Source: Escherichia coli
Lineage (GTDB): Bacteria; Pseudomonadota; Gammaproteobacteria; Enterobacterales; Enterobacteriaceae
Strand: one strand, 5' to 3'
Assembly: GCF_029227855.1 (NCBI RefSeq)
Contig: NZ_CP074356.1
Length of the DNA: 64,000 nucleotides
Numbering within the stretch: position 1 is the stretch's first letter; each line of letters starts with the position of its first letter. The translations under genes were made by a program, and so were the position numbers. This document shows, piece after piece, positions 59,892 to 64,000 of this stretch. Under the pieces are notes generated by a model, which saw only the letters and a program-made list of their open reading frames with translations, was not told the origin of the DNA and made no database searches.

Positions 59892-61239
59892 ATGTCTACG
59901 CCATCAGCGCGTACCGGCGGTTCACTCGACGCCTGGTTTAAAATTTCACAACGTGGAAGCACTGTCCGTCAGGAAGTGGTTGCCGGGTTAACAACGTTTC
60001 TGGCGATGGTCTACTCGGTCATCGTCGTTCCAGGTATGTTGGGTAAAGCAGGCTTCCCGCCTGCGGCAGTTTTCGTTGCAACCTGTCTGGTTGCCGGACT
60101 CGGTTCTATCGTGATGGGTCTGTGGGCTAATCTGCCGTTGGCGATTGGTTGCGCCATCTCCCTGACGGCATTTACCGCATTCAGCCTGGTGCTGGGGCAA
60201 CATATTAGCGTACCTGTCGCGCTGGGTGCCGTGTTCCTGATGGGTGTGCTGTTTACGGTAATTTCTGCCACGGGTATCCGTAGCTGGATTTTGCGCAACT
60301 TGCCTCACGGTGTGGCGCACGGCACGGGGATCGGTATCGGTCTGTTCCTGCTGCTCATTGCCGCTAATGGTGTCGGTCTGGTGATTAAAACCCGCTTGAT
60401 GGTCTGCCCGTTGCGCTGGGTGATTTCGCGACCTTCCCGGTGATTATGTCACTGGTAGGTCTGGCGGTGATCATCGGCCTGGAAAAACTGAAAGTCCTGG
60501 TGGCATTCTGCTGACCATTATCGGTATCTCAATTGTCGGTTTGATCTTCGATCCTAACGTCCATTTCTCCGGCGTTTTCGCCATGCCTTCATTGAGCGAT
60601 GAAAACGGCAATTCACTGATTGGCAGCCTGGACATTATGGGCGCGCTGAATCCTGTAGTCCTGCCAAGCGTTCTGGCGCTGGTGATGACGGCAGTATTTG
60701 ATGCCACCGGAACTATCCGTGCCGTCGCCGGCCAGGCGAACCTGCTGGATAAAGATGGGCAGATCATCGACGGTGGGAAAGCACTGACCACTGACTCCAT
60801 GAGCAGCGTTTTCTCTGGCCTGGTGGGTGCAGCTCCGGCAGCGGTATACATCGAGTCTGCGGCGGGTACGGCGGCGGGCGGTAAAACCGGTTTGACGGCT
60901 ATCACCGTTGGCGTGCTGTTCCTGCTGATTCTGTTCCTCTCTCCGCTCTCTTACCTCGTTCCGGGGTATGCAACGGCTCCGGCGCTGATGTACGTTGGCC
61001 TGCTGATGCTGAGCAACGTGGCGAAAATCGACTTTGCTGATTTTGTTGATGCGATGGCGGGTCTGGTTACGGCGGTATTCATCGTGCTGACCTGTAACAT
61101 CGTAACAGGCATCATGATCGGCTTCGCGACTCTGGTGATTGGTCGTCTGGTTTCCGGCGAATGGCGCAAGTTGAACATCGGTACGGTCGTTATCGCCGTG
61201 GCGCTGGTGACCTTCTATGCGGGTGGCTGGGCTATCTAA
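59892..61239 (+). pseudogene. ghxP: NCS2/AzgA-family purine permease (GhxP/YjcD-like), split by two 1-nt indels
   Basis: Track ORFs 59892-60443 (frame 0) and 60541-61239 (frame 1) are contiguous parts of one permease; frame changes at about 60387-60393 (A/C run) and 60495-60497 (C run). Confidence 0.75.
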
Positions 61240-61390
61240 TCTTTCATCGGATTCTGAAAACGGGTGGCAATGGCTGCCCGTTTTTATTTTCTCCGCACAT
61301 TGTGTGAGCTTTTGCGATATTCTGAAAAAATGAGAATTCAGGCATAACGTCTTTCTCAGATCATAAAAAACATCGCAAACAGGGAACGCA

Positions 61391-63038
61391 TGGAAATCTC
61401 TTCACCATACTGATAATGACCCTCGTGGTCTCGCTGTCCGGGGTGGTCACTCGTGTCATGCCCTTTCAGATCCCGCTTCCGCTTATGCAAATCGCCATCG
61501 GTGCGCTACTGGCGTGGCCGACGTTTGGTTTGCATGTGGAGTTTGATCCTGAACTCTTTTTAGTCTTGTTTATCCCGCCGTTGCTGTTCGCTGATGGCTG
61601 GAAAACGCCGACCCGTGAATTTCTCGAACATGGTCGAGAGATTTTTGGCCTCGCGCTGGCGCTGGTGGTGGTCACCGTGGTCGGCATTGGCTTCCTTATT
61701 TACTGGGTGGTGCCGGGCATTCCGCTGATCCCCGCCTTTGCGCTGGCGGCGGTACTTTCTCCGACCGATGCTGTGGCGCTCTCCGGATTGTTGGCGAAGG
61801 GCGTATCCCGAAAAAAATCATGGGCATTTTGCAGGGCGAAGCGTTGATGAATGACGCTTCCGGCCTGGTGTCGTTGAAGTTTGCCGTAGCAGTGGCGATG
61901 GGGACGATGATCTTCACCGTCGGCGGTGCGACGGTCGAATTTATGAAAGTAGCCATTGGCGGTATTCTCGCCGGTTTTGTGGTTAGCTGGCTGTACGGTC
62001 GCTCGCTGCGATTCCTCAGCCGCTGGGGCGGTGATGAACCCGCGACGCAGATCGTCCTGCTGTTCCTGCTGCCATTCGCTTCTTATCTGATTGCCGAACA
62101 TATTGGCGTTTCCGGCATCCTCGCTGCGGTTGCCGCCGGGATGACCATCACCCGCTCCGGTGTGATGCGCCGTGCGCCGCTGGCAATGCGCCTGCGTGCA
62201 AACAGCACCTGGGCGATGCTGGAATTTGTCTTTAACGGCATGGTGTTCCTGCTGTTAGGTCTGCAGCTGCCGGGTATTCTGGAGACGTCGCTGATGGCAG
62301 CAGAAATCGACCCTAACGTCGAAATCTGGATGCTGTTTACCGATATTATTCTGATATATGCGGCGCTGATGCTGGTCCGTTTTCGGCTGGCTGTGGACGA
62401 TGAAAAAGTTCAGCAACCGCTTCCTGAAGAAGAAGCCGATGGAGTTTGGTTCGTGGACCACACGAGAAATCCTGATCGCGTCTTTCGCCGGGGTGCGTGG
62501 GGCGATCACTCTGGCCGGTGTGCTCTCTATCCCGCTGCTCTTGCCGGATGGTAACGTCTTCCCGGCGCGCTATGAGCTGGTGTTCCTGGCGGCTGGCGTC
62601 ATTCTCTTCTCGCTGTTTGTCGGCGTGGTGATGTTGCCTATTCTGCTACAACACATTGAAGTCGCGGACCATTCGCAACAATTGAAAGAGGAACGTATTG
62701 CGCGAGCGGCAACGGCAGAAGTGGCGATTGTGGCGATCCAGAAAATGGAGGAGCGTCTGGCGGCGGATACCGAAGAGAATATCGATAACCAGCTGCTTAC
62801 GGAGGTCAGTTCTCGCGTCATTGGTAACCTGCGTCGTCGCGCCGATGGACGTAACGACGTTGAAAGTTCCGTGCAGGAAGAGAACCTTGAGCGTCGCTTC
62901 CGTCTGGCGGCATTGCGTTCTGAACGTGCTGAACTTTACCACCTGCGCGCCACGCGGGAGATCAGCAACGAAACGCTGCAAAAATTACTGCACGATCTCG
63001 ATTTGCTTGAAGCGTTGCTAATTGAGGAAAATCAGTAA
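61391..63038 (+). pseudogene. yjcE: CPA1-family Na+/H+ exchanger (YjcE-like), split by at least three 1-nt indels
   Basis: Track ORFs 61416-61847, 61820-62554 and 62400-63038 in three frames together form one exchanger; presumed start ATG near 61391 is followed by an early stop. Confidence 0.75.
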
Positions 63039-63075
63039 GCCGAAAGCGACGTAACCAGGCCCGAGGTAATCTGAA

Positions 63076-63099
63076 AAAGGTGCAATCTTTTGCACCTTT
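63076..63099. terminator. Bidirectional hairpin between convergent yjcE-like and yjcF-like genes
   Basis: aaaggtgcaa-tctt-ttgcaccttt perfect stem flanked by A and T runs. Confidence 0.5.
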
Positions 63100-63226
63100 A
63101 ACAGGTTAGCTCGGGCTAACATTCATGATTCTAAAAAAAATAAGTTATCTCTCTTGTAAAGTCAATTCATTGGCTGTTCTTCGACTTAACCTCAATCTGC
63201 GTGTTGCATAATATCTGCAGTAATCT

Positions 63227-64000
63227 TCATAGCGACTGCATTAATATTATCCTCAGTTTTTGTGACATGCCAGTATGAGAGGTACAATCTTCTTCAAAGA
63301 ATTTCTGTAGTGTTACCAGGGTATCACTATCAATGGGGATATTTTCCTCCCCACGGAGAATGGAAATGCCCATTCCCTGGACGCTAGCCTCATCAAAATT
63401 AACCCGATAGAGACGGGTATTAAACATACAGGCTTTTGTTAAAATAGAACAGTTGAAATGGCAGTTGCTTAAATTGGCATTATTAAAATTAACATTAGCC
63501 ATATTAGAGCCGGTACATATAACCATTTCGAGGAATGTATTTGTCAGCCACGTACAAAAGAGTTTGCTATCAATTAAGTTTATATTCTGGAGGATTGCTT
63601 TGTTCAGATTGACGCGAGACAGATCAGCATGTTCAAAGTTAATTAAATCGAGTTTAGAGAAACTAAGGTCGGCTTTAAATAAATTAACATATGGCGCTAT
63701 TACTTTATAAAGATTTACCTCAGCCATGTACGCCATATAAAATTTGAATAGTCAAGGAAGGTGTTTTTAATATTGGCTCTATTCATTGCTGCATTGTAGA
63801 ATTGAACATGCATAGCGGAGCATGCATTTAGAGTTCCGTCGGCCATTTTTATCTGAGCGAAATTTGAGTCATCGAGAATACAATTATCAAAAAGTATTTT
63901 TTCCATTATGGCGTAATAAAAATTCGTTTTATACATATTACAGTCCTGGAAAATAGCGTTTTGTAGTCTGCAACCTGCAAAATTCGAATTGGATAAATCT
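63227..64000 (-). pseudogene. yjcF: Pentapeptide-repeat protein (YjcF-like) C-terminal part, frameshifted and cut by the window edge
   Basis: Track ORFs 63227-63736 and 63715-63936 on the minus strand in different frames, both with pentapeptide repeats (ADLSRVNLNKAIL, NVNFNNANLSNCHF). Confidence 0.6.

Follow-up and report, generated by a model that had tools for sequence, protein, structure and literature searches.

The last 4,109 bp of a 64,000-nucleotide stretch of an Escherichia coli assembly (contig NZ_CP074356.1 of GCF_029227855.1; "the window" below means this whole stretch) carry the genes ghxP (formerly yjcD), yjcE and yjcF, and all three are broken by frameshifts. Considering the alignments as a whole, this right block, positions 59892–64000, is in all likelihood a low-accuracy consensus sequence, attached to an accurate one at a join made during assembly, rather than a case of gene decay. 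Seven run-length errors, in a block that begins exactly at an unnatural join, point to poor-quality or mis-joined sequence rather than to the real decay of three genes. The first-pass annotation of the window had noticed at least six frame changes confined to the last 4 kb and had preferred sequence error to the independent decay of three adjacent genes. Alignment to three genomes confirmed the cluster, which had been slightly understated, and the preference for error is supported by the position of the indels (insertions or deletions) on one side only of a unique join, by the near-absence of substitutions, and by the lack of any sharing among the matches listed in the genome search described below.

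To define the differences, the right block was aligned to three independent complete E. coli genomes, GB089, NCTC8623 and EC23-1020, and the identical seven indel events were recovered against each of them, corresponding to a density of 1.7 per kb. Every one of the seven alters the length of a homopolymer run of 2–5 bases, in line with the earlier remark that the changes which could be localised sit in short homopolymer runs. The gene ghxP, which encodes a guanine/hypoxanthine transporter (59892–61239, plus strand), has lost one base at each of two sites, reading A4 where the references have A5 (60387–60390) and CC where they have CCC (60496–60497). The Na+/H+ antiporter gene yjcE (61390–63038, plus strand) contains three events: T in place of TT at 61399, in codon 4 (−1), GG in place of GGG at 61785–61786 (−1), and TTTT in place of TTT at 62380–62383 (+1). 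The 3′ two thirds of yjcF, which encodes a pentapeptide-repeat protein on the minus strand (63192–64000), show TTTTT for TTT at 63257–63261, 64 bases from the stop (+2), and AAAA for AAAAA at 63739–63742 (−1). The gene assignments combine the list of open reading frames (ORFs), the annotation and the alignments, and each event was placed by alignment to the three genomes. Compared with GB089 or EC23-1020, the right block has, besides the seven indels, a single substitution and no ordinary single-nucleotide polymorphisms (SNPs). The substitution, at position 63137 in the yjcE–yjcF spacer, merges two A runs, and the sequence at 63133–63140 is A8 where the three references have AAAACAAA. The six frame-change sites named in the first-pass annotation all agree with the alignments to within a few bases; it had not listed the two-base insertion in yjcF (+TT) or the base change at 63137.

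The consequences for the reading frames are visible in the ORF list, where GhxP appears as fragments of 183 and 232 amino acids (aa), YjcE as fragments of 143, 244 and 212 aa, and YjcF as fragments of 169 and 73 aa. The net frame change is −2 for ghxP, −1 for yjcE and +1 for yjcF; therefore the reading frame is restored in none of the three genes, and pairs of frame-restoring indels can be ruled out.

The preceding sequence has the opposite pattern. Positions 1–59891 (the left block) align to NCTC8623 without a gap, with 92 mismatches and no indels, whereas the right block has seven indels and one substitution. Judged from these alignments, the left block displays what true divergence looks like, namely SNPs without indels, and the right block displays the reverse. 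None of the 50 annotated coding sequences in positions 1–59891 has an internal stop and all are intact, which agrees with the earlier statement that the genes before 59.9 kb are full length. The contrast between seven indels in 4,109 bp and none in 59,891 bp is highly significant (Fisher p = 4.5e-9). Six of the seven indels fall in runs of at least 3 bases, which make up only 16% of the bases (p = 1e-4). Sorted by length, the altered runs of the right block comprise 1 of 619 two-base runs (0.16%), 4 of 136 three-base runs (2.9%), none of 40 four-base runs, 2 of 13 five-base runs (15%) and none of the four runs of at least 6 bases. Indels account for seven of the eight differences; taking the indel shares of 10% and 25% of spontaneous mutations that are known from E. 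coli mutation-accumulation studies, the probability of such an excess is 7e-7 and 4e-4, respectively.

The same indels in independent isolates would have indicated real gene decay, as the first-pass annotation had pointed out. A probe of 836 nt made of the joined flanks around the seven sites was run against 5,426 complete E. coli genomes, and not one of the matches listed carries an indel of this set. The best full-length matches reach 1,514 bits at 98.9% identity, which is the score of GB089, a genome that carries none of the seven. A 72-nt probe across the ghxP A4 run found exact matches in none of 5,419 complete genomes. The only event that recurs is the change from A5 to A4 in ghxP, as the resulting 183-aa truncated GhxP is recorded in 32 blocks of raw-run and draft assemblies. 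In all ten contigs with this fragment that we read (L004–L013), ghxP is located at its usual site after soxR. These contigs differ from the reference by 13–79 SNPs, representing unrelated backgrounds, and of the indels in the window they have only the A5-to-A4 change; additional 1-base losses in A5–A7 or T5–T6 runs occur in seven of them. The unrelated SNP backgrounds together with the extra homopolymer losses suggest that the ghxP A5-to-A4 change marks a site at which errors, or at most slippage events, recur, rather than an allele shared by common descent. Contigs L005, L006 and L008 have no other gene-breaking change, with one intergenic +A in each of L005 and L006, and in these three contigs the truncation might be a rare real allele.

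The junction between dctA and ghxP

The left block ends within dctA, of which the 5′ part, 50 codons and one base, occupies 59741–59891 on the plus strand, as indicated by the ORF list and the alignment to NCTC8623. The sequence is identical to NCTC8623 dctA up to 59891 and departs from it at 59892, where the right block opens with the first base (A) of the ghxP ATG and directly abuts dctA codon 50. A three-way comparison of the window, dctA and the sequence upstream of ghxP places the join between 59891 and 59892: with a slash marking the junction, the window reads GCTC/ATGTC, dctA reads GCTC/CTGTC, and the ghxP upstream sequence reads TCTT/ATGTC. Exact microhomology at the join amounts to 0 bp, with only an imperfect CT..TGTC similarity surrounding it, and no insertion sequence (IS) element, mobile element or repeat is present at 59891/59892. 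Beyond the join, ghxP is followed by yjcE and then by yjcF, which leaves the window at 64000. Upstream of dctA lie bcsC (54015–57488) and pdeK/hmsP (57570–59558), both assigned from the ORF list and the RefSeq annotation of matching genomes.

The NCTC8623 coordinates are 2.96 Mb for dctA and 3.62 Mb for ghxP, and the two loci are about 600 kb apart in other genomes. The gene order and the three-way comparison indicate that the join has the orientation of an inversion end, and its geometry on K-12 coordinates is presumably that of a roughly origin-centred inversion of about 600 kb. No complete E. coli genome spans the join, and the maximum coverage of window positions 59500–64000 by any of them is 91%. 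The 36-base join sequence has no match among GTDB representative genomes or JGI metagenome contigs, and the four ORF products that depend on the join or on the indels (66, 143, 169 and 244 aa) are unrecorded in an index of 153 billion genes. None of the plasmid records searched spans the dctA–ghxP join, and an F-prime or plasmid origin was rejected on this ground; a restriction or cloning site can be dismissed as well, as CTCATGTCT contains no common 6-base site. An in-frame dctA–ghxP fusion is excluded because the dctA frame meets a stop 16 codons past the join, giving the 66-aa ORF.

Strain background of the two blocks

The first-pass annotation had also proposed that the right-hand block differs from the rest in origin or coverage. 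The change in quality is borne out and falls exactly at the join; as to origin, alleles of the phylogroup B1 type are found in both blocks, which gives no indication of another lineage. Relative to NCTC8623, the right block differs by 21 SNPs (0.5%) in addition to the substitution at 63137, window positions 27000–59888 by 6 SNPs (0.02%), and positions 1–27369 by 86 SNPs (0.31%). Within the left block, the divergence from NCTC8623 thus falls from 0.31% in the first part to 0.02% in the second, with a boundary of the recombination mosaic at about 27–29 kb, and the left block is a mosaic relative to each reference compared. EC23-1020 is the single best match for window positions 1–25000 and the joint best match for the right block; therefore a single strain background fits both. 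Based on these comparisons, both blocks are ordinary E. coli sequence of the B1 type, the pattern is in keeping with the usual recombination mosaic, and foreign DNA is not indicated. A further difference between the strains concerns the long polar fimbriae (lpf) operon, which is absent at 31579–31901, between yhjX and eptB, in the window and in NCTC8623; EC23-1020 has lpfA–E at this position.

Origin of the junction and of the frameshifts

If the right block is a low-accuracy consensus, the join could be either a chimeric extension within one contig or the border of two contigs written end to end, and the seven run-length changes would be errors that long-read or flow-based sequencing left behind in base calling or in the consensus. 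In long-read assemblies of bacterial genomes, the errors that remain mostly concern homopolymer length and persist where short reads align unreliably (Polypolish, PMC8812927); spurious contigs, as well as errors at the starts and ends of contigs, are common (Trycycler, PMC8442456). In the present case, errors may have survived at low depth or where accurate short reads were unplaceable, e.g. with a correct second copy elsewhere in the assembly. We can envisage two routes to such a structure. In one, a few chimeric or minority reads would prolong a contig of good coverage into a region for which most reads had gone to the true locus, leaving a redundant, thinly covered copy beyond the reach of the polisher, with only one side of the join affected. 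In the other, the window would cross a contig border, and the second contig would be small, poorly supported and restarted by a rotation tool at a predicted gene, which could account for a block whose first base is exactly the A of an ATG. Tools such as Circlator fixstart and dnaapler restart contigs at a predicted gene. By either route, the organism itself most likely has a complete dctA as well as undamaged ghxP, yjcE and yjcF genes at their usual position behind soxR.

Several observations weigh against an assembly origin. The four longest runs in the right block (A7, A6, A6 and T6) are unaltered, although with only four such runs this lacks statistical significance. A blunt, microhomology-free join of unique loci is rarely made by overlap or k-mer assemblers without a chimeric read. 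Furthermore, the join is arranged like one end of a roughly origin-centred inversion of about 600 kb, which could be real. With respect to the first of these points, the intact A7, A6, A6 and T6 runs are unlike the systematic error of nanopore R9 or 454 sequencing; alteration of three-base runs while the longest runs are spared makes the profile nearer to stochastic low-depth error and points to the latter. Nanopore errors linked to methylation motifs can be rejected as a general cause, as a Dcm motif is present at one of the seven sites (CCCTGG, 60495) and GATC at none.

The structure could also have arisen in other ways. A composite, in which ghxP–yjcE–yjcF came from a noisier run or from another B1 strain and was pasted or scaffolded beside dctA, is an unlikely source. 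In that case the words 'differently sourced' of the first-pass annotation would apply literally, and the errors would still be technical. It would be consistent with a right block that equals GB089 and EC23-1020 apart from the indels, yet lies 0.5% from NCTC8623, next to positions 27000–59888, which differ from NCTC8623 at only 6 positions, and with the sharp change in quality exactly at the join. However, E. coli genomes are recombination mosaics and positions 1–27369 of the window are themselves 0.3% from NCTC8623, and one strain background suffices, given the matches to EC23-1020. We consider it very improbable that the three genes are genuine pseudogenes, either in a redundant copy inserted in dctA or on the flank of a real inversion, decayed by relaxed selection or in a mutator. 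An origin-spanning inversion is a tolerated type of rearrangement, homopolymer slippage is a natural source of frameshifts, and the truncated GhxP resulting from the A5-to-A4 change occurs in other public assemblies, with few other defects in L005, L006 and L008. Nevertheless, seven indels against one substitution invert the spontaneous spectrum, with the p values given above, and none of the matches listed among 5,425 complete genomes has any of the indels. By our estimate, accumulating seven indels in 4 kb at normal indel rates would take about 10^7 generations and would be accompanied by tens of substitutions. A mutator background fails because the neighbouring 59.9 kb, which a mutator would have marked too, is clean, with no indels in 59,891 bp and all 50 genes intact.

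The one-sided distribution of the errors, starting at a rearrangement join, could alternatively reflect mutagenic repair of a DNA break, in which break-induced or microhomology-mediated replication, or stress-induced repair dependent on Pol IV, left frameshifts in the newly synthesized flank. We regard this as extremely unlikely. To our knowledge, no bacterial case of such a local indel density has been described, and the density, combined with a near-absence of substitutions, far exceeds known mutational processes. Break-induced replication is reported to leave a signature of this kind, mostly −1 changes in mononucleotide runs (PMC3039667). However, once mismatch repair has acted, each event in that system yields frameshifts at about 2.3e-6 per reporter (Table 2 of PMC3039667), several orders of magnitude below the 1.7e-3 per base observed here, and the join lacks exact microhomology. 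In its most far-reaching form, a real origin-centred inversion of about 600 kb, or the insertion of a duplicated segment, would have occurred at non-repeated sequence, with the indels as scars of extremely error-prone repair synthesis; there is only a very slim chance that this is the case. If true, it would be an unprecedented bacterial counterpart of the localised hypermutation at rearrangement breakpoints, with indels instead of substitutions. It could also be that the join is real and the indels are technical, and such a mixed case would leave the verdict on the frameshifts unchanged.

Implications and comparison with known systems

An annotator who took this region at face value would report three pseudogenes, a dctA cut short and a large inversion in what is otherwise an ordinary E. 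coli of the commensal type; the assembly is the most likely source of all of these. A flag on the block keeps false calls of pseudogenes and rearrangements, as well as spurious truncated proteins, from spreading; the 183-aa GhxP fragment is already present in 32 blocks of public protein collections.

Two repeat structures were observed elsewhere in the window. At 41920–43292 there are three tandem copies of a unit of about 483 bp, which are about 95% identical to one another and each contain an Ldr-type toxin gene (42135–42242, 42618–42725 and 43101–43208). At 33743–34018, a 108-base direct repeat (97% identity) is located just 3′ of a tRNA-Pro gene, over the RtT small RNA annotated in NCTC8623.

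The errors described for long-read and flow-based assemblies (PMC8812927, PMC8442456) resemble the right block in several respects: they are almost exclusively indels, they change run lengths and split genes, and they are clustered by an assembly irregularity in a discrete stretch with clean neighbours. The older nanopore chemistry differs in its systematic error at long homopolymers, whereas here A6, A7 and T6 runs are intact and several 3-base runs are altered. Chimeric joins, spurious contigs and contig rotation have their likeness in the blunt, unique join of loci about 600 kb apart and in the start of the block on an ATG. Among natural systems, host-restricted enterobacteria such as Shigella and Salmonella Typhi likewise have adjacent transporter genes inactivated by frameshifts. 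Their pseudogenes, however, are found genome-wide, are shared within lineages and come with substitutions and insertion sequences, in contrast to the right block, where the changes are limited to 4 kb, private and free of accompanying substitutions. Break-induced replication (Deem et al. 2011, PMC3039667) also leaves −1 frameshifts in short runs on just one side of a rearrangement join, but it was described in yeast rather than E. coli and yields frameshifts at a density several orders of magnitude lower than that in the right block.

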